A stretch of DNA of 64,000 bases from a virus: the IMG/VR virus record IMGVR_UViG_3300027733_000032, one strand, 5' to 3'. A program made the position numbers and the translations under genes. Of the stretch, positions 5,965 to 37,773 are shown one piece after another. The first letter of the stretch is position 1. Every line of letters starts with the position of its first letter. The notes beneath the pieces were generated by a model. The model worked only from the letters and a program-made list of their open reading frames with translations. It searched no databases and was not told the origin of the DNA.

Positions 5965-6128
5965 AGAAGAACACGGGTCGACCGCCAAAGATGCCAACAG
6001 GTGAACGCACGACAATCACAATGAAAATCAATGCTGATGTCAAGCGGAAAATTATTACCCAAGCGCAGGCTTTTGACATGACCATTACAGAGTATGTCTG
6101 CATGCTTGTTGAGAGAGATAGTTCCTAG
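5961..6128 (+). CDS. Ribbon-helix-helix DNA-binding protein (55 aa, not in the ORF track)
   Basis: MKKNTGRPPKMPTGERTTITMKINADVKRKIITQAQAFDMTITEYVCMLVERDSS*; GRPP hook plus RHH pattern; overlaps both neighbours. Confidence 0.75.
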   Translation: MKKNTGRPPKMPTGERTTITMKINADVKRKIITQAQAFDMTITEYVCMLVERDSS

Positions 6129-6940
6129 TGGGTGTACAGGTATTGGAGTTTCGATGTAGTGGTGACTCTGCCTCGGTAAAAGAACTTGTCAAAAATACCA
6201 AGACTCCCAACTCTTTGGAATCTATTCCCAGTGATTCCGTCAACCTAAAATTCATTGACGAATCACTATTACGTTTTGCTAGTGCATGGGGTCGCCCGTA
6301 TGGCTTTATTCAGGAGCAGTCTGGGGCAATTATTCAGAACCTCTTTCCTATCAAGCGTAATGAAGCAGAGCAAATTTCTTCATCTTCATTAGCAACATTA
6401 GAGATGCATACGGAGACTGCTTTTCACCCATGGCGACCTCAACACATTGTGCTCTTATGTATACGAGGCGATGATAATGCTGGGACAACGTATGCAACAC
6501 TTGAGGACATTTTGCTTAATCTCGACAGGGAAACAATAGAAGTTCTTCATGAGCCATTGTTTACGACGACGCTTGATAAAAGTTTTCAGAATCCCGACCA
6601 GTCGGATGCCGTGGTAGCAACTCCGATTTTATTCAATAATGCATCATCAATGACTTACGACAGGGTATTAATGAAACCTAAGACGGATTATGCAGGAACT
6701 GCTCTAAAAGAATTGTCAAAAGCAATTGAAGAATCGAAGCAGGTTTTTAAACTTTCTGCTGGACAGGTTGCGATTATTGAGAATTGGAAAGTAGTTCATG
6801 GTCGCACGCCATTTGTTCCGCGCTACGACGGAACTGACAGATGGCTTAAGCGCGTTATGGTTCGGAACTCCATGCCACCAGCACGAGATGTTCAAAATGT
6901 TGGGGATGATGGAACTTATATGGTTACAATGAGTTTCTAA
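6128..6940 (+). CDS. TauD/TfdA-family Fe(II)/2OG dioxygenase (clavaminate synthase/AsnO-like)
   Basis: MHTETAFH (H-x-E), LLCIRGD, ENWKVVHGRT, RWLKRV. Confidence 0.85.
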   Translation: MGVQVLEFRCSGDSASVKELVKNTKTPNSLESIPSDSVNLKFIDESLLRFASAWGRPYGFIQEQSGAIIQNLFPIKRNEAEQISSSSLATLEMHTETAFHPWRPQHIVLLCIRGDDNAGTTYATLEDILLNLDRETIEVLHEPLFTTTLDKSFQNPDQSDAVVATPILFNNASSMTYDRVLMKPKTDYAGTALKELSKAIEESKQVFKLSAGQVAIIENWKVVHGRTPFVPRYDGTDRWLKRVMVRNSMPPARDVQNVGDDGTYMVTMSF

Positions 6941-7284
6941 TGGTAAGAAAAGCGGAAAAAGCAGAGCATCCTAACCGTCTTTATAACGTTGTTCTTAGGG
7001 TAAGAGGCTCTATGAAAAACGACATGTTGAGAGCCGCCAAGAAACATGACATGTCTCTTTCTGAATATGTTCTTTATTGCGTCTGGGAACATATTCGCTC
7101 AGAGCGCGGAATCCCGACCCCTGGGTCTGCTCAGTTTTCTATGCACACGCCGATACAGGAGATTCAGGCGTACTTGCGTGGGGAGCAATTATTAACTCCC
7201 TGCGGACAGAAGGAATGCAATATGAAGTTGATAGAGTTTCAGAATATGACGTTTTGCAACACTTGCAATGTGAGGATTGAATGA
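6940..7284 (+). CDS. RHH-like protein with C-terminal Cys cluster
   Basis: NVVLRV...AAKKHDMSLSEYV, then PCGQKEC...FCNTC. Confidence 0.6.
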   Translation: MVRKAEKAEHPNRLYNVVLRVRGSMKNDMLRAAKKHDMSLSEYVLYCVWEHIRSERGIPTPGSAQFSMHTPIQEIQAYLRGEQLLTPCGQKECNMKLIEFQNMTFCNTCNVRIE

Positions 7285-7712
7285 TTGAGTTAATTGAAAA
7301 TGGAGACATCTTTGACGGCAAGGCAGATGCTTTTTGTCATGGCGTGAACACCAAGGGTGTCATGGGTGGGCTTGCTGGCGAAATCGCAAAACGATTTCCA
7401 GACTTGGCACACCTGTACGAGGCAATGTGCGAACTTCGTCAGTTGGATGGGGGAGATATTCTTCCTGTGTTTTTTGACAAGTGGTGGATTTATAATCTCG
7501 TCACACAAATTGAACCTGGCGCTGATGCTCGATTGGATTTAATTGAGGAAACAGTAGTGAAGATGATTGAACACGCACAAGTGAACGGCGTTAAATCAAT
7601 CAATGTCCCTAAAATAGGTTCAGGTATAGGTGGCCTCAAGTGGGATGACGTTCTATCCGTAATAACTAAAGTGGGAGAAGATTCTCCGGTTGTTCTTCGG
7701 GTGTGTATTTAG
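7281..7712 (+). CDS. Macrodomain (ADP-ribose binding/hydrolase)
   Basis: NGDIF, HGVNTKGVMGG, AKRFP, IYNLVTQ, PKIGSGIGGLKW. Confidence 0.9.
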   Translation: MIELIENGDIFDGKADAFCHGVNTKGVMGGLAGEIAKRFPDLAHLYEAMCELRQLDGGDILPVFFDKWWIYNLVTQIEPGADARLDLIEETVVKMIEHAQVNGVKSINVPKIGSGIGGLKWDDVLSVITKVGEDSPVVLRVCI

Positions 7713-7744: not shown

Positions 7745-10700
7745 TTAAATGGATTTTTTGTTTTTCCCAATTTGTTCTCTAGTTTGACTCATGTTTTCAT
7801 TTTGTGAACGTTCTCGGCCCAATTGGCTAGGGCTATTCCATTTTCTGTAATCGTTGCGTGTTAGACCTGCTTCAACCCTAATCTCCCGAACTGTAGTCTT
7901 GCCAATGCCAAGTTCTCGTGCTATTTCTGTGTCAACTTTACCCAATTTATGAAGTGCAATAATTTTTTTGTTTCGTGCCACCACCGACGCTGGTATTCCT
8001 GCCTTTCCCCATTTCCCCGTTGCGGCCTGCCCTGCTTTTAAATTTGATGGAATATTATTATTTATTCGATGATTACGGATTGCGCCCCTAGTAACGCCGA
8101 GTTTTTCTGCTATTTGAATATCACTCATCCCGTAAGCAAGCATTTCAAATATCTGTTGTATCTGTTCGTCAGTTAGGCGATTATTGCCTGTTGGGGGAAT
8201 GTTGTTTTTTATTCGAAATTGACGAACCGCACCCATTGTTACGCCAAGTTTTTTCATTATTTCACTATTTCCTGCCCCATCAGCAAGCATTTCAAGCATC
8301 TGTTGTTTTTGTTCGTCAGTTAGGCGAGTACGTGAACTCATTCCACTAATAATTTTGTTTTTATCTGGTCGTGAACTCAAATTTTCTAAAGTGGATTTGA
8401 GGACAAATTCATAACGGTCCTTAGATGCTTCTTTCTCTGCTCGTAGTAATAGTTCTGGTGAAACCTCGGTCAACTTAATTGAACGAGTTGACGTGCTGCG
8501 AACGCCTTCCCTACTTGTGTTTTCAGCGTCTAGAAGTGCGATGAGTTCTCTGGTGGAGCCATCAAATGCGTGGTTAAATTCGCCGAACCTAATCTTTCCT
8601 AGGAGGTCTACAACGCCTTGAAGTTCTTCACTGGTTTCCCTTTCGGGGTACGTTTGCTTAAATATTTGAGGAATTCCATACTCTCCTAGCCAATAGAGTG
8701 CCATAGCATCGCGCTCTTCTTCTGTAAGGTCGAGTAAGTCGCTATCTAAGATAAAAGATGTGATGGCCATGGCGTTCGCCCACTCGCCATGTCTATCAAA
8801 ACCACGACCAGTACCAAAGTGGCCCAGAATGTCGTGCTCTATATCCGGGATTGCACTGCCCCTTGCTGGATTTAGCAGAAGACCCACATATTGCTGGACC
8901 CAAGAGCCGTCAAGGTTTTTGTATTCTTGATATTTCTCAGATAAATCATGACCTTGTAATTTTCTTATAATATCCCTAAATTGTTTTTCGAATTTTTCCC
9001 TGGCTTCCTCAGTCGCGCGGTGGTCTCGCCCTACACGGAATTGATTTGTATAGGAAGTGTCTTTTGGGCTTTTAATTTTATACTTTAATTGAGGAAGGAT
9101 GCTTGCCAAATACTCTACGCTTGGTGCTTCAATTTCTGACCAATCCCTATTTGGGAGAATTGAACTTATGGTTGGATGTGGTTGAGCAAAAATGACGGGT
9201 ATACCGTTGGACGAAACTTTAATTGAAATTGACTTAATCGCTTCTTTGGTTTTTTCGTCTATTGGCGTAGTCGGGTTGTCAGACAAAAGATTTTTAATTT
9301 TATCTATTGTTTTTTGCCTTGTAGCAAATGTTGAATTATTCTCGTCCTCATAAATTTGAAGAAGTGCTTGTCTTGCTGCGTCTTTTTCTGTTTCATTAAG
9401 TTCTAGTTCGTCAAGAATCTCCTCAAAGTCTCGCCCGTCTAAAATGGGATAAGTATCGGTACGTGAACTCATTCCACGACGACCACGTGCTTCTTCTGTT
9501 TCGCGAAGTATGCGGTCAATAGGGTCTTCATTTGTAACACGAGGACGACTCTGTTCTCTTGCCGTGCGGTCTGGCTGACCACCTCTGCCTCTGGCTTGTC
9601 GTTGAGGGCTAGAAACAGGTCCGTATAATTCGTCCCACTCACGCATTTGGGCGTCGACTGCATTTTGGTTATCAGGACTTGGGTCCGTGTAGAGTTTTAT
9701 GCCAGAAATACCGCGAACTCGCACTAATTGAGGTCCAATGAGTTCCGTTCTGATTATTCGGTCATCTTCATCTGCGTAAACAAGAGTTGTCCCTGGCTGA
9801 AGTTTTATCTTCTCATCTGGCGCAAGTTCAATTGGACGGAACCGTTCTTTCTCAGAATCTGTCATATCGCGTCGTCGCGAACTCATGCCACCAACACTAG
9901 TTAAATTAGTATAAATATCATTATCTAGTGATTCTCTTAGAATTTTTTGTCTTGCGTCCTTACTTTGTTTTTTAATTTCACCATCTTCATCAAATCGGAA
10001 GAAGTGTCCTTGTATTTCCCAAACTAATTTTGGTCGACCAAAGCCTTCGTATAGTTCTACGACTGTTTCAATTTGGCTAGGCGTAAGTTTTTCTATTTTT
10101 GCATCAAGGTTTAGGTGTGCTCCTTCTCCTTGTATTGTGACGCGCGCTGTATCCAGGCGGAGAATGCCGTCTTTGAAAGAGTTAATATAATTATGTTCGT
10201 CGCCATGCCAAAATACTGGATATATTTCTCCATCCGGATAAATCCAGGCACCACGATATGGAACTTTCACGAATTCTCGGGCCGAGATGAAATCTCTATT
10301 CATCGGTCTTTTATTTGCGCCTTTTATACGCCCTGTGTTTTCAAAAAGTTTTCTTAGTCTGAGCATTTCTCTTGCCTGATTTAAAACAAATTCTTTTTTT
10401 TCATCATCTAAGGCAAATTTGTCAATGGCATCAATTATTCGTTCAAGTTCTGGGGAATCATAATTTAGTGGGTTTTCCCTTATCTTGTCTCGTTTATACA
10501 TAAAAACTTTATTCAAATCATTAAGTCCTGCTTGACTCAATAAATTGTTGCCTTTTTTATCTTTTAATCTAATTTCAGAATCAGACAATTCAAGATTCAT
10601 GTCAAGAATGTCGAATAATGGACCCCACTTTTCTTTAAATTGTCTATTGGTTATTTTGTCTAATAATTTTTCTTGACGAGTAGTTTCTTCTTTAATAAAA

Positions 10701-12718
10701 TTAATTCGACTAGTGCTACTCAAGCCAAGTGGTGTTGGTATAAGTTTTCCAGGACGTGCTGGCTTAAAGCCCGCTTGACCAGAGCCACGACTTAAAGGTT
10801 CTCCGAATTTACCAATTTCCTTAGGTATGGATACGCCTTTTGAAAGTTTGAGCATTTCGTCATAGATTTCTTGGCGTTTTTTAACGTTCTTCTCATCACG
10901 ATACTTTTCATAAAGAGGTGTAAGTTTATTTTTTAATCGATAAGAAGATGGCGTATGGAATTGGATTTCATAAAAGAATCCGTCAGGATGGTCCACCATT
11001 ACGTTAATACCCTTGTAGGGGTCTCCTGACGTCCAGTAATTTGTCACCGATGCATTGTGCCCCTTCTTGGCCAAGGCAGAGATGACACCAAGAACGTCGT
11101 TTGTATATTTATTCACATCATCTGATTCAAATGTATAACGCAATGGGTCGTTCATTGACGTAATTGAGTCAGTGAGGTCTCCATCGAACAGGTTTTGCAA
11201 GCGTTGAGCCTTCAGGGCAAGTGATTCGACTGGTTTTTGTCTGTTTTTAAGACCACGCAAGTAAAGACTTGAGCCCTTTTTGTCGGCGAGACCCTTCATC
11301 ATTTGTGTTAGTTCAGGTTCATGTTGCGAAACAAACTTCATGAATTCTTGCGCTTCCTTTACGGCACGCTGAGAAGCAATATTTGATTTACCTACAGAAC
11401 GCAAGCCAGCGATAATTGGTGAACTTGGCAATGATGGACGCATCCATGGCGTTGCGTCTTGAACTAGACCATCATTATCAGCATCAATTGCGTCTGGGTC
11501 ATAAATTTGTACGGAGTTAATGGCACGTAGGGCAGGACCAAGTGCTTTTTCTGTCATGTACTTGTCGGCAATTCGCTTAATTGTATTTTTAATTGACTGT
11601 CTACGTGATTCAAAACCATCACCAGCCAACTCCGCAATTTTCTCAATCGGGTGCATGGATATTATTGGCTTCTTTTTATCGCGATAAGAAATTTCTTCTT
11701 CAATATCCTTGAGCCACTCCAGGTATTGCTCTGCATCTTCTCGCGATTTAAACTTGCCAAGATGTTCCCCATTTTTTGAAAAATAGGAAGAAGCGTTAGA
11801 TTGCTCTATTGTCTGCCCAAATTTTGTTATTAGCGGAACAATAATAAACATTCCTGCCTCGTCGCCAGAACCGTCAATTATGATTGGCTCAATAAGTGCC
11901 AAACTTCCATTTTGTTTTTCAATTGGCTCCCTATTGTCGATATCTAGATTCCCGGGAATAAAAGGTTTTACGGGTGGGTCGCCACCATATGACGGCGCAT
12001 TGGTAATTTCATTTAGTTTTTCTTTATTTGGAGAAAATGCTTGTTCTAATGGTTCCGTACTGACCATGCGGTCTTTTTCTGATGATGTATCAGAAAAAAC
12101 TTTTGGTGCATCAGGATTATTTGCAACTTCTTGAACGCTCGGCCCAAGTGTCTTTGAACGTGTTTTCTTGGAGGCATTAGCCGCCCTTTGTGTGTTTGCT
12201 ACGAATTGCTTACCTGTCTTGTCTCCCGCTAGTTTTTTGGCAATTGTCGCTCGTCTCTGAGAGGGGGTGAGTCGTTTCCATGCTGCCGCTGGGAGATAGC
12301 GGGTCATCCCACCTTTTCTTCGTGCAGGCTTGCCGTCCGAGGTCGTCCATCGTTCGCTTGTCCATTTTTTCAAAGAACGCTGGGTCCTACCAGGCTTGCC
12401 TCTATAGCCTCCACCAGCACGACGGTATGCTTGCGCTACGAGTTGTGCTTTTCGAGCAGACCACTGGCCCGGTCGACCGCCATCCGAACCAGCCATGATT
12501 CGCCGTTTGATTGTTTCGCGTAATTGTGGACGAGTGTATGGGATTTGTTTAATACCAAAACTGGGCTCGGTATCCCCTGCGTCATCTAGGAAATCTTTAG
12601 TTGCCTTTTCAACCCATCCAGGGGTGCTTCCATAGGCGCTGCGAGAAGAAGGGACCCTAAAGTTGCTTTGGCTTAATCGAGGCCGACCATTTCTATCCGT
12701 ATGTTCAACTTCTTGCAT
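7745..12718 (-). CDS. Large modular (polyvalent) protein: DUF5872-like basic domain, RelA/SpoT-type nucleotidyltransferase domain, zincin-like segment and C-terminal HTH repeats
   Basis: ATG at 12718 has a GGAG SD. Motifs: GQWSARKAQL; RQK..SL..K, DPLRYT, YKGIN, EIQFHT; EHDILGHFGTGRGFDRHGE; RLTDEQ..HTH x2. Confidence 0.85.
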   Translation of the reverse strand: MQEVEHTDRNGRPRLSQSNFRVPSSRSAYGSTPGWVEKATKDFLDDAGDTEPSFGIKQIPYTRPQLRETIKRRIMAGSDGGRPGQWSARKAQLVAQAYRRAGGGYRGKPGRTQRSLKKWTSERWTTSDGKPARRKGGMTRYLPAAAWKRLTPSQRRATIAKKLAGDKTGKQFVANTQRAANASKKTRSKTLGPSVQEVANNPDAPKVFSDTSSEKDRMVSTEPLEQAFSPNKEKLNEITNAPSYGGDPPVKPFIPGNLDIDNREPIEKQNGSLALIEPIIIDGSGDEAGMFIIVPLITKFGQTIEQSNASSYFSKNGEHLGKFKSREDAEQYLEWLKDIEEEISYRDKKKPIISMHPIEKIAELAGDGFESRRQSIKNTIKRIADKYMTEKALGPALRAINSVQIYDPDAIDADNDGLVQDATPWMRPSLPSSPIIAGLRSVGKSNIASQRAVKEAQEFMKFVSQHEPELTQMMKGLADKKGSSLYLRGLKNRQKPVESLALKAQRLQNLFDGDLTDSITSMNDPLRYTFESDDVNKYTNDVLGVISALAKKGHNASVTNYWTSGDPYKGINVMVDHPDGFFYEIQFHTPSSYRLKNKLTPLYEKYRDEKNVKKRQEIYDEMLKLSKGVSIPKEIGKFGEPLSRGSGQAGFKPARPGKLIPTPLGLSSTSRINFIKEETTRQEKLLDKITNRQFKEKWGPLFDILDMNLELSDSEIRLKDKKGNNLLSQAGLNDLNKVFMYKRDKIRENPLNYDSPELERIIDAIDKFALDDEKKEFVLNQAREMLRLRKLFENTGRIKGANKRPMNRDFISAREFVKVPYRGAWIYPDGEIYPVFWHGDEHNYINSFKDGILRLDTARVTIQGEGAHLNLDAKIEKLTPSQIETVVELYEGFGRPKLVWEIQGHFFRFDEDGEIKKQSKDARQKILRESLDNDIYTNLTSVGGMSSRRRDMTDSEKERFRPIELAPDEKIKLQPGTTLVYADEDDRIIRTELIGPQLVRVRGISGIKLYTDPSPDNQNAVDAQMREWDELYGPVSSPQRQARGRGGQPDRTAREQSRPRVTNEDPIDRILRETEEARGRRGMSSRTDTYPILDGRDFEEILDELELNETEKDAARQALLQIYEDENNSTFATRQKTIDKIKNLLSDNPTTPIDEKTKEAIKSISIKVSSNGIPVIFAQPHPTISSILPNRDWSEIEAPSVEYLASILPQLKYKIKSPKDTSYTNQFRVGRDHRATEEAREKFEKQFRDIIRKLQGHDLSEKYQEYKNLDGSWVQQYVGLLLNPARGSAIPDIEHDILGHFGTGRGFDRHGEWANAMAITSFILDSDLLDLTEEERDAMALYWLGEYGIPQIFKQTYPERETSEELQGVVDLLGKIRFGEFNHAFDGSTRELIALLDAENTSREGVRSTSTRSIKLTEVSPELLLRAEKEASKDRYEFVLKSTLENLSSRPDKNKIISGMSSRTRLTDEQKQQMLEMLADGAGNSEIMKKLGVTMGAVRQFRIKNNIPPTGNNRLTDEQIQQIFEMLAYGMSDIQIAEKLGVTRGAIRNHRINNNIPSNLKAGQAATGKWGKAGIPASVVARNKKIIALHKLGKVDTEIARELGIGKTTVREIRVEAGLTRNDYRKWNSPSQLGRERSQNENMSQTREQIGKNKKSI
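8328..9477 (-). repeat. Exact 19-nt direct repeat encoding the GMSSRT linker
   Basis: GTACGTGAACTCATTCCAC at 8328-8346 and 9459-9477. Confidence 0.9.
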
Positions 12719-12740
12719 AAATTCTCCCAAGTGAGCGGGA

Positions 12741-13364: not shown

Positions 13365-13562
13365 TCAACGCATTAGTTTCTGTATTTCTTGCATCTGAAA
13401 ATAAAGTAACTGAATCGTACGATTTGCCAAATCAGTAATATCTGGATTGGATGAATTCTTCGCAAAGTCGTTACACATTTGAATCCCTATTTTATGATTG
13501 CTCTCTATCATGCCAAGAAATCTCTCTTCTTCGGCTGAATATTCATTGTTGGTGGGATTCAT
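13365..13562 (-). CDS. DUF305/ferritin-like helical protein (single half)
   Basis: FLGMIESNHKIGIQM...NPDITDLANRTI..Q.QEI..M; ATG overlaps the whiB stop (TAATG). Confidence 0.55.
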   Translation of the reverse strand: MNPTNNEYSAEEERFLGMIESNHKIGIQMCNDFAKNSSNPDITDLANRTIQLLYFQMQEIQKLMR

Positions 13563-13864
13563 TAGCCACCCCACATTTGGGCCAATGTCGGCCTAGTAGG
13601 AGATATCCCCCTGCGCCGCTGCTCTGCTGCTAATTGCCTACTTGTTAGACCGGCCCAAACACCATGCATGTCTGCTGGCGGAAACTCAAGAGCATATTCA
13701 AGGCATCTAGCCTTTACTGGACACTCAGAACATAGTGCCCTGGCCTCAACAATATAGGTAATGTCTTTGTGTTCTTTTGGGAACATCAAATTACCCTTAC
13801 CCTTACATGAAGCATCTTTCATCCATTGGTGGTCACTGATTCCAAATGGTGGGAAATCATTCAT
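13562..13864 (-). CDS. whiB: WhiB-family Fe-S transcription factor
   Basis: W...ASC...FP...A.ALCSECPVKARCLEYAL...GVWAGLTSRQ: four Cys plus the GVWAG turn. Confidence 0.95.
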   Translation of the reverse strand: MNDFPPFGISDHQWMKDASCKGKGNLMFPKEHKDITYIVEARALCSECPVKARCLEYALEFPPADMHGVWAGLTSRQLAAEQRRRGISPTRPTLAQMWGG

Positions 13865-14496
13865 GTACTTTTTTTCCTAGACTGTATTGTGTTTTCGTCC
13901 TGATGGTAAATGGCATACGGCGGACCTGTGTGAGGGTCGTATTTCGCCGTAATGGACATCGCTTTCAGAACGTGTTTTTTTGCTACAGCAAGTGAGAATG
14001 GGCGAGGCGGCATTAGTGCAGAAAGGGAACCGAGCGCATACTGTAATCCGCTTCCTATTGAGTACATGCCGCTTGAGTCAATTGACCACGCGTAATCATT
14101 TTCTATTTGATAAATTGTTCTATTGACAACAACCAGCATTTCGGAACCATGTTCCGCCAAGTGTTGGGACGCTTCCCTCGGAGGCGGCGAATATCCATTT
14201 GCATCAAAACACTCGCGCAATGCAGGAGTGAATTTATTTGTAACAAACTCATCAAGTTTCTTTCCCTTAAGTCCTGGAGCGGGCTGAGGAGGTTGAAACG
14301 AGTAATTTATGAGATTTATAGCGCGAAGGTCGCCTGCGACACCAACTAAGATATTGCCAATTTGAGCAATCTTCGAGATTCCCGCAGCGAGCGTTTGAAT
14401 TCGAGAAACATATCCCTCATCATCAATGCTTGAGATGCGACTATCGGAACACAGAACAGCAAAACCATCCCCCTGAATTCCGATAATTGTTGTCAT
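13861..14496 (-). CDS. Proteasome beta/HslV-like Ntn protease
   Basis: N-terminal MTTIIG, SDSRIS, catalytic-type Lys (SKI), SIGSG. Confidence 0.85.
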   Translation of the reverse strand: MTTIIGIQGDGFAVLCSDSRISSIDDEGYVSRIQTLAAGISKIAQIGNILVGVAGDLRAINLINYSFQPPQPAPGLKGKKLDEFVTNKFTPALRECFDANGYSPPPREASQHLAEHGSEMLVVVNRTIYQIENDYAWSIDSSGMYSIGSGLQYALGSLSALMPPRPFSLAVAKKHVLKAMSITAKYDPHTGPPYAIYHQDENTIQSRKKST

Positions 14497-14497
14497 T

Positions 14498-15706
14498 TTA
14501 GGACTTGCTCTTTTTTACAGGAGTCTTTGTGCTTGCGAGGGTCTTTGTGCGGTCTGAAATAAATTCTTTCCCGCGGAACATTCCCCAGCCTGAATAAATT
14601 GGCATACATTCATATGAGAACTTATGGTCGCCGCCATCCTCGTACATTACGACTCCAAGACCTTGCTGCCAGTTTTCGTGGCGCACGAGAGGGCGACCGT
14701 CTAGGTCGACTCCACCTCGCGTGCTAGGAATGGCTCCATCGATGCGAGCAAGACATCCAGGTGAAGCGGCCATGATTGTTCGTGCGCCATCCCAGTCTTC
14801 ACGAGTCTTGAATGCACACTCAATGCGGTGAATGTGGCCGTAAATAACGCTACTTTTTTCAGCATTCAGGTACACGTGGGCGGTTGAGCCACCACTTTTC
14901 ACGCGGTCACCGTGAATGATGCGCAATTTCTGATTAACCCAAATGTCAGAAGCCGGATATCCAGGCCTGTACTCCACACCAAAATCATCCATTCGACATA
15001 GATATGGAACCGACATAACTGGCCAGGATTCCGGCGTATTGCCCTTGCGCAATCCATAAGCGGCACCAGCATTTTGAACAAGATACTTAGGCATCCGCTC
15101 TTCATGGTTGCCAGCAAGCCAGACAATTTGTGCATGTGGGGCAGCGTGGCGCATTTCGGCACAGAATGTAGTCGCTCTGTCGATTGTTGCCTGTGTTGTC
15201 AGCGCATAACTTGGATAAATCACATACTTGCCCATTTCTGGCAAGTCAAGGTTGTCTCCGACACAAACAATAAGTTCTGGCTTCAAGTGCTTGATGACGT
15301 TGAGCGCAACACTAATGGCGTCCTCGTCATGTGTTGGCTCCAAATCCCCATCACGATTTCTGAAATAACCAAATTGGATATCAGGTATGACGACACATGT
15401 CTTGAAAGTTTCAGCAGCCCTTGGAACTGAGGTGTTTTTGGGCAATCTGACTTCTGGGCCGCGTTGAATAATTGGCCATTCTGGGCCAGTTTCCCACTTG
15501 GGAGAAATTTGAATTGCAGCAAGGTCCACAATCTGTGGCTCGCCGTTCTCGTCCTTGAGCATTGATTGATAAATGGAGATTCTAGTAATATCGCCAACTT
15601 CATTAATATCAATGTTCTTGGAAGCAAGAAGGTCAGCGATTGCCCCAATCGTCTTAGCATTGGTCTCTTTTTGTTTTTCTTCGCCGATTTTATCTGAGAT
15701 ACTCAT
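14498..15706 (-). CDS. Calcineurin-like metallophosphoesterase
   Basis: PDIQ, GDNLD, GNHE, HGD, GHIH; ATG at 15706 overlaps the upstream TGA. Confidence 0.9.
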   Translation of the reverse strand: MSISDKIGEEKQKETNAKTIGAIADLLASKNIDINEVGDITRISIYQSMLKDENGEPQIVDLAAIQISPKWETGPEWPIIQRGPEVRLPKNTSVPRAAETFKTCVVIPDIQFGYFRNRDGDLEPTHDEDAISVALNVIKHLKPELIVCVGDNLDLPEMGKYVIYPSYALTTQATIDRATTFCAEMRHAAPHAQIVWLAGNHEERMPKYLVQNAGAAYGLRKGNTPESWPVMSVPYLCRMDDFGVEYRPGYPASDIWVNQKLRIIHGDRVKSGGSTAHVYLNAEKSSVIYGHIHRIECAFKTREDWDGARTIMAASPGCLARIDGAIPSTRGGVDLDGRPLVRHENWQQGLGVVMYEDGGDHKFSYECMPIYSGWGMFRGKEFISDRTKTLASTKTPVKKSKS

Positions 15707-15969
15707 TTGCTTGTCTCCCGCATAAATCCGCATTTACAAAGATGGTTGTTTTCAAAGCAAAGACGTGCCTTAATGAGCGTGTCTTTGCATAATTGAATGC
15801 CTTCGCTATAAAGAATTTTTTCTAATGCCCGTGCGGATATTGAATTTGATGTCACTGCATCCATGAGGGCTTTCTGGTCGTCTGCAGACAAGCCCTCCAC
15901 GGTCTTGGCAAAATGGCACGTCTTGGTGCTCGCGCTTTGCTGGAACAATGTGATTTTTTCTGAAAGCAT
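15703..15969 (-). CDS. Hypothetical protein (helical, Cys-containing)
   Basis: 88 aa, translationally coupled to the phosphoesterase. Confidence 0.7.
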   Translation of the reverse strand: MLSEKITLFQQSASTKTCHFAKTVEGLSADDQKALMDAVTSNSISARALEKILYSEGIQLCKDTLIKARLCFENNHLCKCGFMRETSK

Positions 15970-26348: not shown

Positions 26349-26572
26349 AGAATACCTCCGAATACATTACATATTATCTTATTATTTGGGTGTGATGGGA
26401 AGATTGCGGTCTCTATTAACTTGGTATTTCGTCATCCAAGACCTTAACGAACCTCTCGTGCGACCAATATTGTTTACTTCGGCCCGTGCGCCACCCGTGA
26501 TGAGGTGGTACGGTAAGGGAATTGGCGGCTTGCGCCCTCAACCGTGAAACACTTTTGGAGTTTTTGAACAAC

Positions 26573-27187
26573 ATGATTTTACACACACAATATTCATATA
26601 ACGAAGAGTTTTCCCAAAAACTTGCTTTTGAATTTACCGCCGTGGGTTCAGACAAATCGTCGTATCATGGGTACGAGGACATATACTCGCACCTTTTATC
26701 CGATATGTCGCCAACGTCATTCCTGGAAATTGGTCTCTTTCTTGGGGAGACTCGTAGTACTGACCTTTTTGCTTGGGAACAGATGTTTCCTGAAGCAAAA
26801 ATTTATGGGGCAGACATAAAGTCTCATCTCCTTTTCAAAAGTGGCAATATTCAAACATTTTTTGTTGACCAGTCACGCCCAGAAACCTTTTTGGATTTGA
26901 AGAACTCAATTGGCGACAAGGTCGACATCATCCTGGATGACGCTTCGCATGTTCTTGATTTGACAATCTCCACTTTTGAGAACATGTTTGATTTTCTTGA
27001 AGATGATGGCATTTACCTCATAGAGGACATTCTTTACGAGGATTACAATATGGACAGTTGGGAACAGCGTTCATCTGAATTAAAAGAATATTTTGACAAA
27101 ACTGGTCTTTCTTACGAGATGTATGCAACATCAAAGGTTCATTCCTGTGTGGATAGTGTTGTTTTAGCGGTATTCAAGGGCAAATGA
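26573..27187 (+). CDS. Class I SAM-dependent (sugar O-)methyltransferase, MycE-like
   Basis: DKSSYHGY..IY, FLEIG, W..FPEAKIYGADI, DQS, IILDDASH, YLIED. ATG at 26573 follows GGAG; the track start at 26522 is TTG. Confidence 0.85.
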   Translation: MILHTQYSYNEEFSQKLAFEFTAVGSDKSSYHGYEDIYSHLLSDMSPTSFLEIGLFLGETRSTDLFAWEQMFPEAKIYGADIKSHLLFKSGNIQTFFVDQSRPETFLDLKNSIGDKVDIILDDASHVLDLTISTFENMFDFLEDDGIYLIEDILYEDYNMDSWEQRSSELKEYFDKTGLSYEMYATSKVHSCVDSVVLAVFKGK

Positions 27188-27639
27188 CTCCTGATAGGAT
27201 ATCTTTCATGACAAAAACTACCGACAGGTTCTGGAGCAAAGTAGATATCGGTTCTCGTGAGGAGTGCTGGCCATGGCGTGCATTTACCCATAAAGGATAT
27301 GGCATATATCGGGATGATGGGAAAAAAGTTAGGGCGCATCGATATTCTTTCTTTATTCACAACGGCTTTTATCCGCCAGTCGTGATGCACGCCTGCGATA
27401 ATCCGCCTTGCGTCAATCCAGCGCACCTACTGGCGGGAACACCGGCTTTGAACACCAGAGACATGATGGCCAAAGGTAGACATGTTGAACCCAACTCCAG
27501 CAAAACACACTGCCCGACGGGTCACGAATACACAGAAACAAACACTTACGTGTATCCATCGGGCGCGCGTAAATGTCGCACCTGTCGCAACGAACAAAGT
27601 CGTATACATCGTGCAAAGAAAGTTAAGGAAAATACTTGA
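27184..27639 (+). CDS. Free-standing HNH homing endonuclease
   Basis: RFWSKV...ECWPW...GYG...AHR...VMHACDNPPCVNPAHL..N; C-terminal HCPTGH..CRTC; overlaps both neighbours. Confidence 0.9.
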   Translation: MTPDRISFMTKTTDRFWSKVDIGSREECWPWRAFTHKGYGIYRDDGKKVRAHRYSFFIHNGFYPPVVMHACDNPPCVNPAHLLAGTPALNTRDMMAKGRHVEPNSSKTHCPTGHEYTETNTYVYPSGARKCRTCRNEQSRIHRAKKVKENT

Positions 27640-28718
27640 GATTCCACATCGTTTCCCTACCACACACGAACACCACCGAAGACTTCACCGCCTGTGCTTA
27701 CACAGAGAAGGTGCGCAAGTTCTGTATCATGATGAAAAATCTCGGACACACCGTATTTCTCTATGGCGGCGAGTTCAATGAAGCACCCTGCGATGAACAC
27801 ATCGTCTGCATTACCGAGGAGCAACGACTAAAGGCCGTTGGTAACAACCACTACTCTGCGGCGTCATTTGACTGGAACCTGCCTCATTGGGTTGAGTTCA
27901 ACGGCAACGTCATCAAGGGCATTCAAGAACGCCTAGAACATAAAGATTTCATCTGCCTCATAACTGGATATGCCTCTAAGCCAATTGCTGATGCTTTTCC
28001 CAACGAACTGAGCGTGGAGTTTGGGATTGGATATGGCGGGTGGTTTGCTAACTACAAGGTGTTTGAGTCCTATGCATGGATGCATGCCTGTTACGGGTCT
28101 AAAGTTACTGACCCTCACACTCTTGACGGCAAATTCTTTGACACCGTTATCCCAAGTTATATCGACGTTGACGACTTCGCCCTACAAGAAGAACCCGACG
28201 ACTACTACCTATACATAGGTCGACTGACGGAGCGTAAGGGTTATCAGGTTGCTGTAGACGTATGCAAGGCACTTGGTAAGCGTTTAGTGATTGCTGGTCA
28301 AGGAACTCCACCTTCTTACGGTGAATATGTGGGCGTAGTTGGGACTGAAGAGCGTTCAAAACTCATGGGTGGGGCAATCGCTACCTTCACTCCAACCATC
28401 TATGTCGAACCTTTTGGCACCGTTGCTATAGAAGCAATGGCATGTGGTTCTCCTGTGATTTCTACCGATTGGGGAGCATTTACGGAGACTGTCATTGATG
28501 GCGTCACTGGATTCAGGTGTCATACTTTGCAAGAATTTATGGATGCTGCGGAGGCGGCAAAACACCTTGACCGCAAGGCAATAAGCCAGTACTCCAAGGA
28601 CCGCTACGGCCTCGATACGGTGGGGCTTATGTATGAGAAGTATTTTACGCGGCTACAAACCCTCTGGGGTAAGGGTTGGTATGAACTCAATAGTAGCCCT
28701 CCAGTTGAAGAAGACTAA
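27636..28718 (+). CDS. GT-B (GT4-like) glycosyltransferase
   Basis: YIGRLTERKG, LVIAG, EPFGTVAIEAMACGSPVISTDWGAFTE. Confidence 0.9.
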   Translation: MRFHIVSLPHTNTTEDFTACAYTEKVRKFCIMMKNLGHTVFLYGGEFNEAPCDEHIVCITEEQRLKAVGNNHYSAASFDWNLPHWVEFNGNVIKGIQERLEHKDFICLITGYASKPIADAFPNELSVEFGIGYGGWFANYKVFESYAWMHACYGSKVTDPHTLDGKFFDTVIPSYIDVDDFALQEEPDDYYLYIGRLTERKGYQVAVDVCKALGKRLVIAGQGTPPSYGEYVGVVGTEERSKLMGGAIATFTPTIYVEPFGTVAIEAMACGSPVISTDWGAFTETVIDGVTGFRCHTLQEFMDAAEAAKHLDRKAISQYSKDRYGLDTVGLMYEKYFTRLQTLWGKGWYELNSSPPVEED

Positions 28719-28768
28719 AAGGAATGACCACCGACGCAAAGTTTTAGGCTTCGGCGCAATGAAGGAAA

Positions 28769-29065
28769 TTATACAAAATGTTTTACAATCGAAGCGATTG
28801 CTAAGACAGTCCAGGCAACGTTGAATAGAATGATGGTCGGCAAAGTTTTCTTAGTAGATGACCAAATCAGCGCCGTACTTGAAATGATAGCAAAAATGTA
28901 AAGCCACCACCACTGCTTGCCCAAAAGTAGGCCAGGAAAAATAATGAGAATCTTTGTTGCAAAACCCCACGCCTCGACGGCATTGGGACGATTCCAATAT
29001 TCCTTCTTGGACATCGTTTTAACAGCATCAACTATCTTTTGACTGAACTGGACAAATTTATTCAT
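28769..29065 (-). CDS. Small multi-TM membrane protein
   Basis: 98 aa with three hydrophobic segments. Confidence 0.65.
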   Translation of the reverse strand: MNKFVQFSQKIVDAVKTMSKKEYWNRPNAVEAWGFATKILIIFPGLLLGKQWWWLYIFAIISSTALIWSSTKKTLPTIILFNVAWTVLAIASIVKHFV

Positions 29066-29685
29066 GTGCCTTTGATTCCATTCTTTTTCTGATACTCATG
29101 TCTAGCACGAGCAACTTCATGTAAGTGGGACGGACCCTTGGTAAAATACCAATGTTCTGGTTCGGCAAAATGAAAGAAAATCATTTGCACTTCATTGTTC
29201 GCTGGGTCAGGGAAACTTTCGCGCCAATGGTATTGGTCCTCACCGTAATAACAAACCGCTTGGTTTGGTTCTGGTAACATCTCTTGTTCTTCAACATAAA
29301 TAGGCCACTGAGTCTTATACGAGAGACATAAGTCCATTGTGTAGGTACAGGCATTGTCGTCGACATGGCTTGGGAGTTGCGCCCTAAAGCCACGATAGGA
29401 AACCCACAAACAGTATGTCGGCTTTAATGTTGGGCTAAATGTAGACCTGGCTTTGTCTAATAAAATTTTGTGGTATTCCCTAAGTGGCGATTCAGTTTTA
29501 TCTGTGCTATTTATACCAAATCTACCTAAAGATGGTTCATAGGAAATAACTTTGGTTTCTTGCAGCAAAGATAAATCTTCATTCAATTTAGTAAACACAG
29601 ATGGCTCAAAAACTTCATCAACAATAAATGCCGGAGGTCTTCTATATAAAGTCCGATTTGTTAGTGGGTCATAGTAGGTGTTCAT
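29062..29685 (-). CDS. 2OG-Fe(II) oxygenase
   Basis: LPSHVD (HxD), YGEDQYHWRE, IFFHF. Confidence 0.75.
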   Translation of the reverse strand: MNTYYDPLTNRTLYRRPPAFIVDEVFEPSVFTKLNEDLSLLQETKVISYEPSLGRFGINSTDKTESPLREYHKILLDKARSTFSPTLKPTYCLWVSYRGFRAQLPSHVDDNACTYTMDLCLSYKTQWPIYVEEQEMLPEPNQAVCYYGEDQYHWRESFPDPANNEVQMIFFHFAEPEHWYFTKGPSHLHEVARARHEYQKKNGIKGT

Positions 29686-30352
29686 TACCTAAAGACCCTC
29701 CATTGTCAATCATGTCAAGAGACTGATTTTCACTATTTTCCAATATGAACGTACTGACAATCCATTTATCATTAGAAATTGGCACGCACCCTTGATGTGG
29801 ATGTGTCCAATATGCTGGAAATAATGCTATAGACCCAGCCTTGGCAGGCACATAGACGTCTTGCTGACGAAAATATGTTTCTCCCCCAGTATCTACGGTA
29901 TTGAGATAAACAACAGCACCAAGAATACGATTCAGGACAACGGTGGGGACCGGTCCACCATCAATATGCTCGCGATAAAACCCCTTACCCTTAATATATC
30001 TTTGCATCCTGAATCCCGTATCACACATTCCTGGCCATTCCCATAACCACTTGAATTGTTCCTGATAATACCCAACAGCAGAAAATATTGCGTTAGAAAC
30101 TTCTAGTTCATAGGAATAGAGTGGTTCTATTGGGACGTTCTTTTCGGCAAGATTTGAGGTAGACCAACTCATATCCATGGTATTTTTAATATTTGGCATA
30201 ACGCCGCTAAGGACTGGTCCTGGAGAGAATAATTTCTCGTAATACTTTGATGATTCTTCAATAATAGAAGAACAAATTTCTTCATTAAGAATATTTTCGG
30301 CAACCATAATTGCAGATGATTTACCTGCTGGCCAGCAAAATTCGATGGTCAT
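29669..30352 (-). CDS. 2OG-Fe(II) oxygenase (prolyl-4-hydroxylase-like)
   Basis: QRY..G.FY.EHID, YLN..GGET.F, FPAYWTHPHQG, KWIVST. Confidence 0.9.
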   Translation of the reverse strand: MTIEFCWPAGKSSAIMVAENILNEEICSSIIEESSKYYEKLFSPGPVLSGVMPNIKNTMDMSWSTSNLAEKNVPIEPLYSYELEVSNAIFSAVGYYQEQFKWLWEWPGMCDTGFRMQRYIKGKGFYREHIDGGPVPTVVLNRILGAVVYLNTVDTGGETYFRQQDVYVPAKAGSIALFPAYWTHPHQGCVPISNDKWIVSTFILENSENQSLDMIDNGGSLGNEHLL

Positions 30353-30367
30353 GACCGACCTTTCGGT

Positions 30368-30607
30368 TTAGTTTTGAGATAAAAACTTTTCGTAGACATT
30401 AAGAATGTCTCGCAGATGCATTTGCGCTGTATCGCTATAGGCTGAATTAGAAAAATCTGGTTGCCAAGAAAAAGAGCCATTAACTAACTCTAGGTCATCT
30501 GGGTCTACTCCTGCAAGTAAGACTGCAGTGAATAACTCTGTTTCTAGACGGCGGCGCGCTGTTTCTCTAGCAACAGTCTTTTGATTTTCTGTAATATTAA
30601 ATTCCAT
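30368..30607 (-). CDS. Small helical protein (paralog family)
   Basis: NITENQK..ARET...LETELF..LLAGVDPD. Confidence 0.7.
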   Translation of the reverse strand: MEFNITENQKTVARETARRRLETELFTAVLLAGVDPDDLELVNGSFSWQPDFSNSAYSDTAQMHLRDILNVYEKFLSQN

Positions 30608-30616
30608 GTTAGAACC

Positions 30617-31432
30617 TCAGTCGTTTCGTCTCATTATTTTATCAACAAATGTTTTCTTTTGTGTGGCTAACTCTGAATCTGCGTCACGTTGCATTTTTTT
30701 ATATTTGCTTTTTTGTTTTTTGGGCATGAAGCCGCCTCCAAATCCTCTGTGTCTGAGGAGATTGTAGGCACTTGAGTTCCCCCATAGGAGTTCTGATTCT
30801 TTAGTTCTCTTAAATGGTATGACGTGCCACATTGGGCGTCCGATTTCAAGTTCAAAAGGCTCGTTAGTTAATACGTTAATAACCATATGTGCATTATGAT
30901 AATAATCTGTATTAACTACTGCTGGGAGCATTGTGTAGTTCGGATTTGGGTTCCAGAGTGGGGGTAGGAATAATGATGACCAACCTGGAGGAGTTTTTAC
31001 TAACCAAGGGTTGATGACTTTAATGTAATTTGATTCTTGAAGTTTCCGTGCTTTTGAAACAGGACATTCACCTGTTTGTGAATACATGAAACTTTCAATA
31101 CCAAAGTCGCCACAATCAGTAGTTAAATCAAATCTGGCATCCCAGTTTTTGCCATTCAAAGATGGGCGAATCATTAATTTTGCCCATAGGGGAATTGTAA
31201 AACCTGTTGCAAGATAGTCGGAGGTACCCGAGCATCTCTTCAAACTTCCATCTGAGCCACTTAATTCTTTCCACCATTCAGGCCAATTCCCATTATTGGC
31301 ATATGGACGACATGAATCATCCATCAAATTAGGGTCAACGCAAGAAAGAAACACTTGATTTTTCTTCAATTTTGGTAAATCATGAAAAATGTCCGGTTTA
31401 ACTATTTGCAGTTTTTCTGAGCGCTTCCGCAT
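30617..31432 (-). CDS. Hypothetical enzyme-like beta protein (DUF6065-like) in the tailoring cluster
   Basis: C.G..DYL..GF.IPLW; K.INPW...TPPGWSSLFLPP; P.VVNTD.Y. Start reassigned to MRKRSEK at 31432. Confidence 0.55.
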   Translation of the reverse strand: MRKRSEKLQIVKPDIFHDLPKLKKNQVFLSCVDPNLMDDSCRPYANNGNWPEWWKELSGSDGSLKRCSGTSDYLATGFTIPLWAKLMIRPSLNGKNWDARFDLTTDCGDFGIESFMYSQTGECPVSKARKLQESNYIKVINPWLVKTPPGWSSLFLPPLWNPNPNYTMLPAVVNTDYYHNAHMVINVLTNEPFELEIGRPMWHVIPFKRTKESELLWGNSSAYNLLRHRGFGGGFMPKKQKSKYKKMQRDADSELATQKKTFVDKIMRRND

Positions 31433-33565: not shown

Positions 33566-33827
33566 TGTCTAGTCTCCATTTTAGAACATAAAAAAGATAC
33601 CAAAATCGTCTTAAGGACATTTGATATCTACGCAATTCTGCATGCTTTTCTGCTGCAGTAGTAGAATTGGGGTCATAGTTTGCTGCGCCAAAAACATTAC
33701 TACACGATTCCATCAAGTCATCTAAAGTCAGACTTTGAATATCTGCCAAGTCAACACCAATTGTTACAGCGATTGCGACTAGTTGTTCTTGAACATAATT
33801 AAAATCATTTTGTAAGTTATAGCCCAT
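33558..33827 (-). CDS. Small helical protein (distant member of the paralog family)
   Basis: EQL..AVTIGVDLAD; probable start MGYNL at 33827. Confidence 0.65.
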   Translation of the reverse strand: MGYNLQNDFNYVQEQLVAIAVTIGVDLADIQSLTLDDLMESCSNVFGAANYDPNSTTAAEKHAELRRYQMSLRRFWYLFYVLKWRLDNE

Positions 33828-34565: not shown

Positions 34566-34566
34566 G

Positions 34567-34815: not shown

Positions 34816-34817
34816 TG

Positions 34818-36991: not shown

Positions 36992-36992
36992 T

Positions 36993-37772: not shown

Positions 37773-37773
37773 T

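Follow-up and report, generated by a model that had tools for sequence, protein, structure and literature searches.

Toxic alarmone synthetases are a recently recognized class of weapon, which includes the T6SS effector Apk1, the MuF-fused Apk2 of phages, the toxSAS enzymes and the exported EAS enzymes. What is such a synthetase doing in the middle of a very large phage protein, which nucleotide would it modify, and how would the phage deploy it with no evident antidote at hand? This question is raised by a stretch of viral DNA of 64,000 nucleotides (IMG/VR record IMGVR_UViG_3300027733_000032), hereafter called the window. The initial annotation, made from the letters of the DNA, had proposed for it an injected or late effector that makes (p)ppApp or (p)ppGpp or else modifies tRNA ends. 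Our joint reading, which we consider reasonably probable, is that the module is an intact synthetase of the Apk/EAS type, likeliest a maker of (p)ppApp, and that it is an exchangeable cargo of a polyprotein, probably released by proteolysis and co-delivered with the DNA.

A polyprotein of shuffled modules

The synthetase domain is embedded in a long reading frame with the following features:

7745..12730, minus strand: host polyprotein open reading frame, modular, 1,661 amino acids from a TTG start
12155..12703, minus strand: basic DUF5872-like module (residues 10-192), fused at the front here
11408..12022, minus strand: module of residues 237-441, found ahead of the synthetase module throughout a phage clade (P0019, P0021-P0028)
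11396..11407, minus strand: GLRS linker (residues 442-445), N-terminal border of the synthetase module, pLDDT below 50
10727..11395, minus strand: alarmone-synthetase module (RSH SYNTH, Apk/EAS-type; residues 446-668)
10715..10726, minus strand: GLSS linker (residues 669-672), C-terminal border of the synthetase module, pLDDT below 50
7748..10714, minus strand: remaining modules, separated by GMSS (948), GMSS (1086), GVRS (1409) and GMSS (1463)
Residues 673-947 and 952-1085: two modules without assigned function
Residues 1090-1408: HDxxGH...GRGFDRHGEW module
Residues 1413-1462: short segment
Residues 1467-1661: three HTH DNA-binding repeats

The form that begins at ATG (7745-12718, 1,657 amino acids) is the database protein P0002. 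The phage is large (~140-177 kb) and uncultured, is probably lytic and probably has its host among the Actinomycetota. Positions 1-25000 of the window gave no megablast match among GenBank phages, and no tRNA genes were found in the 64 kb.

At least seven modules are present, and relatives carry different subsets of them in different orders, which is the shuffling that defines polyvalent proteins. The synthetase module has the same neighbors only in P0003 and P0019, while the other relatives shuffle their modules; in the related locus L010 the polyprotein is split into consecutive genes, the synthetase-bearing part being a protein of 735 amino acids. In L004 and L006 the DUF5872-like part has its own gene upstream, and in other polyproteins it forms a C-terminal module; P0004 lacks a synthetase but has the module of residues 673-947. 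For the HDxxGH...GRGFDRHGEW module no recognizable fold was found. The synthetase is a swappable module of a shuffled, polyvalent-type phage protein.

RelA/SpoT domains have been listed as a phage-only cargo of polyvalent proteins, with a predicted role in host shut-down (Iyer, Burroughs, Anand, de Souza and Aravind, 2017; PMC5512222). The protein resembles those described there in its large size, in the stringing together of unrelated effector and DNA-binding domains and in the extensive shuffling. Unlike them, the 1,661-residue protein has none of the hallmark domains in Pfam (MPTase, DdrB-ParB, ART, methylase, SNF2) and no HExxH motif; at the level of motifs, the distant relatives P0009-P0017 carry HEW[GA]H, up to three times. 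The published cases are prophages of Spirochaetes and epsilon-Proteobacteria, whereas the present phage belongs to a different lineage, and the peptide G-[MLV]-[SR]-S that recurs between the modules here is not described in that study. In BFVD, large proteins of uncultured phages with a synthetase domain are found, some of them annotated as polyvalent, including ART-PolyVal-like and DdrB-like ones.

The synthetase module

The stretch first called as a synthetase, 10800-11395, lies on the minus strand and covers residues 446-644 of the 1,661-residue reading frame, with the motifs and both linkers in place; the confidently folded core spans residues 451-642 (10805-11380 of the window). Its motifs are as follows:

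11210..11242, minus strand: Syn1-type basic motif RQKPVESLALK (residues 497-507), in which R497, K499, S503 and K507 are contacts to the phosphates of the donor ATP
11132..11149, minus strand: Syn2 motif DPLRYT (residues 528-533), in which D528 corresponds to D121 and R531 to R124 of SaEAS
11033..11047, minus strand: beta-strand VTNYW, reading S560-V-T562-N-Y-W against the family consensus R-V-K-N-Y-W
11003..11017, minus strand: Syn3 motif YKGIN (residues 572-576), with Y572, G574 and N576 invariant and N576 corresponding to N169 of SaEAS
10952..10969, minus strand: Syn4 motif EIQFHT (residues 588-593), in which E588 and Q590 correspond to E182 and Q184 of SaEAS

The Syn1 motif had been rightly recognized but its spacing was wrong, since it reads R.K...SL..K, with three residues from K to SL, and not R.K..SL..K. 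The module contains the catalytic and substrate motifs Syn1 to Syn4 of RSH synthetases: a basic cluster in Syn1, the Mg2+ Asp and an Arg in Syn2, an aromatic-Gly loop in Syn3 and Glu-x-Gln in Syn4. Invariant across the family (alignment A1) are K499, K507, D528, R531, T533, N564, Y572, G574, N576, E588, Q590 and H592; the conservation of R497 and S503 is at least 90%. The residue equivalent to D528, D121 of SaEAS, is the one that was mutated to inactivate that enzyme (PMC12691689).

The exception is the beta-strand. Ser560 aligns with the ATP-binding lysine (K154 of SaEAS, K353 of Apk1) and Thr562 stands at a second family lysine; at least 90% of the family have R or K at the first position and K at the second (alignment A1), and both are replaced here. 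Among the ATP-site residues named for SaEAS and Apk1 (R124/R330, K154/K353, N169/N370, E182/E382 and Q184) four of the five are thus present and the lysine is not. Basic residues at 560 and 562 are absent throughout the phage-polyprotein subclade, so the activity or specificity of this subclade may differ. L001 has a copy that is 90% identical, and comparison with it gives a dN/dS of 0.052 over the whole module and 0.027 over the core, with dS about 1.2. The synthetase module is intact and under strong purifying selection.

Family assignment

The proposal of a RelA/SpoT-type synthetase inside a polyprotein was upheld by several kinds of comparison. The matches exceed chance by a wide margin. 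The module matches the C-terminal part of phrog_7625, a family of MuF head morphogenesis (E 1.5e-21), and also phrog_2859 (E 3.6e-21) and the NCBIfam family of the XopAD/skwp effector C-terminus (E 8.6e-24). PDB entry 8VX3, which is SaEAS, is matched at E 2.4e-8 from the single sequence and at 6.6e-39 from a profile of 37 sequences, and this profile of homologues retrieves from all PDB sequences at E<=10 only SaEAS and Tas1 (1.1e-5). The gathering threshold of the Pfam family RelA_SpoT (PF04607) is not reached, and the isolated domain has no Pfam family even at E<=10, so that the identification rests on the PHROG, NCBIfam, PDB-profile and fold evidence; P0040, a relative with four copies of the domain, reaches PF04607 with 30 bits against a cutoff of 27 bits. 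The AF2 model (pLDDT 86.7, pTM 0.82) has the small-alarmone-synthetase fold, in line with the expected Pol-beta-like nucleotidyltransferase. Its top Foldseek match is again 8VX3 (E 1.9e-10, TM 0.70/0.80), followed by Tas1, RelQ, RelP and Rel.

Relatives are numerous. An exhaustive search matched 2,723 representative clusters at E<=1e-3, and relatives are encoded on at least 295 viral stretches of IMG/VR; of the best 80, 18 have the domain in an internal position and 62 in a C-terminal one. The C-terminal domains of MuF proteins from S. pneumoniae prophages are 36% identical to the synthetase module (E 2e-22), and proteins of Pasteurella and Mannheimia phages also match. The three elements of the Apk-type signature are all present, namely RYT in syn2, GxN in syn3 and FH in syn4; this adenosine-type signature (RYT / GxN / [YF]H) is distinguished from AVR / SxH / IR of the guanosine-type RSH enzymes (PMC12226406). 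On its sequence and predicted fold, the module is assigned to the Apk/EAS clade of RSH synthetases, together with the MuF-fused Apk2, the T6SS effector Apk1/Tas1 and the exported SaEAS.

Each of these differs from the present case in its setting. In Apk2 proteins, toxins of temperate phages, a (p)ppApp synthetase is fused to MuF; they are known from S. pneumoniae SPNA45, M. haemolytica, P. multocida and Bacteroides caccae (PMC10083569; PMC12226406). They are the closest characterized phage relatives, share the Syn motifs and the adenosine-type signature, and are likewise phage-encoded and fused to a larger carrier. Unlike Apk2, the 1,661-residue protein has no MuF domain (no Phage_Mu_F in Pfam), and its match to phrog_7625 covers only profile positions 320-499, the toxin part; the Apk2 domain is C-terminal while the present one is internal and is followed by about 1,000 residues, and the strand lysines are replaced. 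SaEAS of Streptomyces albidoflavus (Ahmad et al., 2025; PMC12691689) is about 20-23% identical and has K154 where Ser560 stands here; unlike the EAS family, the phage polyprotein that carries the module has neither a Sec signal peptide nor a known secretion-system domain. Both Apk2 and SaEAS are closer to the module than Apk1/Tas1 of P. aeruginosa (PDB 6OX6), whose PAAR/T6SS carrier and cognate immunity gene Tis1 are both absent here.

The search for an antidote

The initial annotation had recognized no adjacent hydrolase or immunity gene, and this holds within the 64-kb window. Since the synthetase domain is internal, no gene can directly follow it, and the toxSAS layout of a stand-alone gene with an adjacent or fused antitoxin is not found. 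Apk2 toxins are accompanied by the immunity proteins IapK/Tis1-like and Aph1 (PMC10083569; PMC12226406; Bartoli et al., 2023, J Mol Biol, cited there). In Streptococcus phage IPP32 an iapK-like gene and an HD hydrolase gene follow at once, whereas neither occurs in the window: a phmmer search with the IPP32 protein at the IapK position (69 amino acids) and the HD hydrolase found no homologue among six-frame window reading frames of at least 50 amino acids (best E 0.76). Sequence-level searches of the 64 kb recognized no MuF domain and no IapK/Tis1-like or Aph1 gene, and Pfam scans of 51 window reading frames (10 and 41) contained no HD, HD_4, SAH or Nudix family.

Several candidates were considered and set aside. 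A convergent Macro-domain gene (7281-7712) comes after the polyprotein frame, but its synteny is also kept beside polyproteins that have no synthetase (L008 and the P0004 contig), so it is not specifically linked. One further gene was considered together with it:

14498-15733: metallophosphoesterase gene

For neither of the two was a (p)ppApp activity found in the literature examined. An antisense frame of 80 amino acids (10115-10357, plus strand) has a GTG start and is rich in Cys, Phe and Ile, as is typical of an antisense reading; it also lies inside the module of residues 673-947, which is not specific to the synthetase, and it was rejected as unsupported. As for the modules that flank the synthetase, that of residues 673-947 is not specific to it, while that of residues 237-441 does co-occur.

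What the enzyme would make

Alarmone chemistry had been predicted, and it is supported by the nearest characterized relatives, Apk2, SaEAS and Apk1, which are nucleotide pyrophosphokinases. We infer that the beta,gamma-pyrophosphate of ATP would be moved onto the 3'-OH of a second purine nucleotide. ATP, ADP and AMP would be the likeliest acceptors, giving (p)ppApp, with GTP and GDP possible too, as in SaEAS; the predicted outcome is that the ATP pool is drained, purine synthesis is blocked and host growth is arrested. The identity of the product is not readable from sequence. SaEAS, which has the same signature, makes both alarmones (PMC12691689), the Apk2 family makes (p)ppApp only (PMC12226406; PMC10083569), and swaps of motifs failed to convert Apk2 (PMC12226406).

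The family is indeed mixed, since (p)ppGpp is the sole alarmone made by VpEAS and AaEAS, both of which nevertheless act as toxins in the cytoplasm (PMC12691689). A synthetase restricted to (p)ppGpp, which would trigger the stringent response of the host to reprogram transcription and translation or intoxicate the host by overproduction, would agree with this, with the place of SaEAS, a maker of both alarmones, as the best solved match, and with the alarmone-triggered shut-down that Iyer et al. (2017; PMC5512222) proposed for polyvalent RelA/SpoT domains. Against it stand the closest characterized phage relatives by sequence, the 36%-identical Apk2 proteins, which make (p)ppApp exclusively, and the signature RYT / GxN / FH, which is of the adenosine type and not AVR / SxH / IR; we regard it as rather improbable. 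The initial annotation had also allowed for tRNA ends as the target, and of its two branches the one with free alarmones is favored: CapRel and FaRel2 match the module less well. A pyrophosphokinase of the tRNA 3'-CCA end, of the FaRel2 / PhRel2 / CapRel toxSAS type, would halt translation and not make free alarmones. The family profile retrieved no FaRel, CapRel or PhRel entry from the PDB at E<=10, SaEAS lies 6-12 Z units above these enzymes, and neither a fused pseudo-zinc-finger antitoxin domain nor an adjacent antitoxin gene was found, which makes this reading very improbable. There is also little likelihood, in our judgment, that through the loss of the strand lysines the domain has been weakened catalytically or repurposed, whether to bind nucleotides, to serve as a scaffold or to act on another acceptor. 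Such a change would explain why immunity is needless; it would fit Ser560 and Thr562 in place of R/K and K, the window in which no immunity or hydrolase gene was found, and the lower toxicity of full-length Apk2 compared with the isolated Apk2 domain (PMC10083569). Yet every other catalytic and substrate-contact residue is invariant (alignment A1), the core dN/dS of 0.03 indicates a constrained function, and the substitutions have been retained in all of the subclade, at 35% identity, which suggests a functional variant and not decay.

Linkers and deployment

Both linkers that had been said to delimit the module, GLRS and GLSS, were found, and they belong to a wider series. The protein contains six copies of G-[LMVI]-[SR]-S, where shuffled sequences would give 0.28, and close relatives contain 4-10; the equivalent of GLRS, P-x-I-[AS]-x-[LM]-R-S, is kept in relatives of 35% identity. 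In the AF2 model the segments that hold the linkers have a pLDDT below 50. The linker codons vary synonymously (ATG/TTG/TTA/CTG/GTT, GGN, AGY/TCN), which implies a constraint on the peptide. The idea that a linker is the relic of an internal start codon was rejected, since its hydrophobic position is also written with TTA and GTT, neither of them a start codon, and since the Gly and Ser codons change synonymously. The modules are probably freed by proteolysis at the G-[MLV]-[SR]-S linkers; no protease for them was identified.

In the proposed mechanism, the synthetase would be one exchangeable cargo of a multi-effector protein whose modules lie between disordered linkers, from which proteolysis would probably free them. 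That the protein enters the host at infection together with the DNA is suggested by the fused basic DUF5872-like and HTH modules, by a leader-like segment directly ahead of the synthetase and by the analogy with MuF and polyvalent proteins. The leader-like segment closes the module of residues 237-441 and is found at residues 388-441 (about 55 residues, including DADNDGLVQD). Other polyproteins of the family have its homologue at their extreme N-terminus, which makes it a candidate leader or targeting segment. As a weapon aimed at the host in a lytic cycle, the synthetase would need no linked immunity gene. Packaging, cleavage and timing, and with them the earlier phrase "injected or late effector", are inferred.

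The same enzyme might instead stay out of the virion: the infected cell would make the polyprotein, processed or not, for host takeover or against competitors, and the synthetase would act in the virocell. This is a serious possibility, though we would not expect it. The homologous polyprotein of L009 is surrounded by genes of replication and nucleotide metabolism (RNR, Thy1, SSB, helicase and whiB); in the window the neighbors are whiB, an HslV-like peptidase, a phosphoesterase and an endolysin, and not head genes; the three HTH repeats fit a regulator, and no MuF, portal or head-protein domain is fused. On the other hand, the characterized or predicted phage carriers of the domain (MuF, portal and polyvalent proteins) are virion-associated, the relatives share an N-terminal leader followed by the linker motif, which resembles a targeting propeptide, and the gene closes a long minus-strand block with tail-fibre, minor-tail, head-decoration and endolysin/lysis genes. 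A more specific version of delivery, which we think unlikely but worth stating, is that large lake phages, probably of Actinomycetota, build cassette polyproteins from a shared leader, swappable effectors and site-specific G-[MLV]-[SR]-S cleavage sites, and that the synthetase is latent until it is freed at maturation or injection. It would then be harmless while embedded, and for that reason an immunity gene would be unneeded. If true, this would be the first protease-activated, zymogen-like alarmone-synthetase toxin, on a chassis distinct from MuF and from the MPTase-type polyvalent proteins.

Significance

The module is a known kind of phage weapon, unusual only in its embedding between cleavage-like linkers and in having no recognizable antidote nearby. 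The existing picture is unchanged, as viral metagenomes commonly contain RelA/SpoT cargo in multi-effector phage proteins, and a prediction of such cargo dates from 2017. What the locus adds is an internal synthetase module with conserved linker peptides and no linked antidote, in a large and probably lytic phage. The natural replacement of the ATP-site lysine in its subclade is a ready-made probe of the contribution of that residue. If the linkers are cleavage sites, the protein would offer a tractable test of whether phages inject synthetases to bring about host shut-down as infection begins, and of how self-intoxication is avoided without an immunity protein.

Identity and Fold of the Synthetase Domain

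The stretch flagged in the initial annotation (10800-11395, minus strand) corresponds to residues 446-644 of the polyprotein ORF at 7745-12730, which encodes 1,661 aa from a TTG start; the protein form on record begins at an ATG four codons downstream and has 1,657 aa. The motifs and bounding linkers from which a RelA/SpoT-type alarmone synthetase had been recognized are all present in the translation, with the correction that the basic motif, described as R.K..SL..K, has three residues rather than two between its K and SL.

Motifs of the synthetase domain in the product of the minus-strand ORF 7745-12730
Residues 442-445: GLRS, linker motif, one bound of the domain
Residues 497-507: RQKPVESLALK, basic motif
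Residues 528-533: DPLRYT
Residues 572-576: YKGIN
Residues 588-593: EIQFHT
Residues 669-672: GLSS, linker motif, other bound of the domain

The isolated domain matched no Pfam family even at E<=10. Its identity as an alarmone synthetase is supported by matches to PHROG 7625 over its C-terminal part (MuF-type "head morphogenesis," E 1.5e-21), to PHROG 2859, to the C-terminus of the NCBIfam model of the XopAD/skwp type III effector (E 8.6e-24) and to PDB 8VX3 (E 2.4e-8), which is SaEAS, the exported alarmone synthetase from Streptomyces albidoflavus (PMC12691689). An exhaustive HMMER search with the domain recovered 2,723 representative clusters at E<=1e-3, and a profile of 37 short homologues matched SaEAS (E 6.6e-39) and the T6SS effector Tas1/Apk1 (E 1.1e-5) and nothing further among the PDB sequences at E<=10. 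The AlphaFold model built on this 37-homologue alignment is confident (pLDDT 86.7, pTM 0.82), and Foldseek placed SaEAS at the top (E 1.9e-10, TM 0.70/0.80), all hits ranked after it being RSH synthetases. The predicted fold is thus that of a Pol-beta nucleotidyltransferase, and therefore the proposal of a synthetase stands.

Active Site and Likely Product

Residues K499, K507, D528, R531, T533, N564, Y572, G574, N576, E588, Q590, and H592 are invariant in the family alignment. D528 is aligned to D121 of SaEAS, whose mutation was used to render SaEAS inactive (PMC12691689), and R531, N576, E588, and Q590 are aligned to its ATP-site residues R124, N169, E182, and Q184. At the basic position of SaEAS K154 and Apk1 K353 the domain carries Ser560, and Thr562 stands in place of the lysine that comes next in the family, so that "SVTNYW" is read here against "RVKNYW" in the family; these strand lysines are missing throughout the phage-polyprotein subclade. 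Despite the lysine replacements the domain is under strong purifying selection, as seen in comparison with a 90%-identical copy on a metagenomic contig (L001), where the module as a whole has a dN/dS of 0.052 and its core one of 0.027, with dS about 1.2.

Adenosine 3'-pyrophosphokinases are distinguished by the signature RYT (syn2), GxN (syn3), and YH (syn4), the guanosine 3'-pyrophosphokinase counterpart being AVR, SxH, and IR (Paulet et al., PMC12226406). The corresponding motifs of the domain are RYT, GIN, and FH, and SaEAS shares this RYT/GxN/[FY]H-type signature. The closest GenBank phage matches are the C-terminal domains of Streptococcus pneumoniae prophage MuF proteins (36% identity, E 2e-22), and Pasteurella, Mannheimia, Haemophilus, and Aggregatibacter phages are among the matches as well; the matched domains are Apk2 toxins. 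The Apk2 enzymes of S. pneumoniae and M. haemolytica make (p)ppApp only, from ATP, and have toxic effects in Escherichia coli (PMC12226406; PMC10083569), SaEAS produces (p)ppApp as well as (p)ppGpp, and two other EAS enzymes make (p)ppGpp only (PMC12691689). Judged from these relatives, (p)ppApp would be the most likely product of the predicted synthetase, the mixed products of the EAS enzymes keep (p)ppGpp as a possible one, and pyrophosphorylation of tRNA, which had also been suggested, is unlikely.

Search for a Linked Antidote

The MuF-synthetase gene of Streptococcus phage IPP32 has a 69-aa gene (iapK position) directly on its 3' side and, after that, a gene for an HD phosphohydrolase (aph1 position), whereas here the domain is internal and thus no gene can directly follow the synthetase. 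Aph1 acts specifically on (p)ppApp. The polyprotein ORF is preceded by a 125-aa Cys-rich ORF and followed by a convergent Macro-domain gene.

Genes beyond the 3' end of the polyprotein ORF
7281-7712, plus strand: Macro-domain gene, convergent with the polyprotein
6128-6940: TauD-family dioxygenase gene, adjoining the Macro-domain gene

Six-frame ORFs of the window contain no homologue of the IPP32 69-aa protein or HD phosphohydrolase, and Pfam scans of 51 of its ORFs detected no HD, SAH or Nudix family; the earlier impression that an evident antitoxin is lacking is thereby borne out for the 64-kb window. The Macro-domain gene was considered as a linked antidote and rejected, because it also adjoins polyproteins that have no synthetase, and an antisense ORF behind the synthetase domain was likewise examined and rejected. 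The Macro/TauD arrangement is syntenic in two related loci (L001 and L008) and on the contig of the relative P0004, which is without synthetase.

Mosaic Architecture and Linker Peptides

The polyprotein is a mosaic. Segment 5-672 is common only to P0003 and P0019 among the related proteins, and the remaining relatives share different modules in differing order. Module 1090-1408 (window 8507-9463, minus strand) occurs in one to three copies per protein and has an invariant HDxxGHxxxGRGFDRHGEW motif; it has no match in Pfam, PDB sequences, Foldseek, VIA or ESM-Atlas, its AF2 model reaches moderate confidence only (pLDDT 68.6), and it may be an uncharacterized enzyme domain. The DUF5872-like N-terminal module, which is basic, forms the C-terminal module of P0007-P0015 and a separate upstream gene in loci L004 and L006, where it lies just upstream of a synthetase-bearing protein of about 1,000 aa. 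In L010 (6106-14829 of contig logan:ERR14822389_48859) the single ORF gives way to consecutive genes on one strand, with products of 735, 928, 744, and at least 426 aa, the first product ending shortly past the synthetase, which indicates that the modules are able to function individually.

The linker motif G-[LMVI]-[SR]-S occurs six times in the polyprotein, where 0.28 occurrences would be expected, and each close relative has it 4-10 times, in every case at module borders. The codons used for it differ synonymously, and some of them are not start codons, so that conservation lies at the peptide level and a relic of internal start codons is ruled out. The two motifs flanking the synthetase fall in stretches left disordered by the model. 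Homology links residues 388-446 to the very start of many related proteins, in which a linker motif comes next at about residue 83-95, and this part resembles a leader peptide that has a putative processing site.

The linker pattern fits proteolytic release. No protease for the linkers was identified, and the polyprotein has no HExxH motif, nor do its linker-rich relatives (P0001, P0003-P0005, P0008). The distant relatives P0009-P0017 carry up to three zincin-like HEW[GA]H motifs, and G-[ML]-[SR]-S linkers are nearly absent from them, which suggests two alternative processing strategies within one protein family. Like the product of the synthetase, injection and processing of the polyprotein are steps that we infer.

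Genome Context and Host

The window is phage DNA, and the strand block of the polyprotein also encodes collagen-like tail fibers, a minor tail protein, a head-decoration protein, and a VanY/PG-binding endolysin, together with the following genes.

Further genes in the strand block of the polyprotein
13562-13864: whiB
13861-14496, minus strand: HslV/proteasome-like Ntn peptidase
14498-15733, minus strand: metallophosphoesterase

The whiB gene here, and the genes for an Rpf-type transglycosylase and DUF732 in one relative, suggest an actinobacterial host. All three listed genes keep their synteny with the polyprotein in L001, L004, L010, and L096, and the Ntn peptidase is a candidate linker-processing protease. 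The region at about 26500-42000, which adjoins the collagen-like tail fibers, contains medium-sized ORFs with Pfam families assigned to the region as a whole: tryptophan halogenase (E 5.6e-103), two 2OG-Fe(II) oxygenases, group-1 glycosyltransferases, a methyltransferase, and an HNH endonuclease. An identical polyprotein was found on contigs of up to 138-177 kb.

Distribution and Significance

RelA/SpoT has been described among the cargo domains of "polyvalent proteins" as one specific to phages, for which host shut-down by alarmone synthesis was predicted (Iyer et al., 2017, PMC5512222), and about 1,400 Apk1-like or EAS sequences have been catalogued on MuF, XopAD, LXG, PAAR, and other carriers (Ahmad et al., 2025, PMC12691689). 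In IMG/VR at least 295 viral stretches encode relatives, as counted with one degenerate pattern, and among the best 80 of these the domain is C-terminal in 62 and internal in 18. BFVD holds large uncultured-phage proteins with the synthetase fold, some annotated as polyvalent, and a related complete 170-kb IMG/VR phage has the domain within an open frame of 2,709 aa that lacks the linker motif. Many homologues carry two to five tandem synthetase copies in one polypeptide (P0020, P0029, P0030, P0031, P0032, P0036, P0040, P0041, P0043); in P0030 the copies number three and the N-terminus is WXG100-like, and P0020, on a 145-kb contig, has two copies and an intein with a LAGLIDADG domain.

The locus represents a phage multi-effector protein with an Apk/EAS-type alarmone synthetase, a type already known, and its interest is moderate, residing in the embedding of the domain between conserved linker peptides, in the absence of local immunity, and in the natural substitution of the ATP-site lysine.
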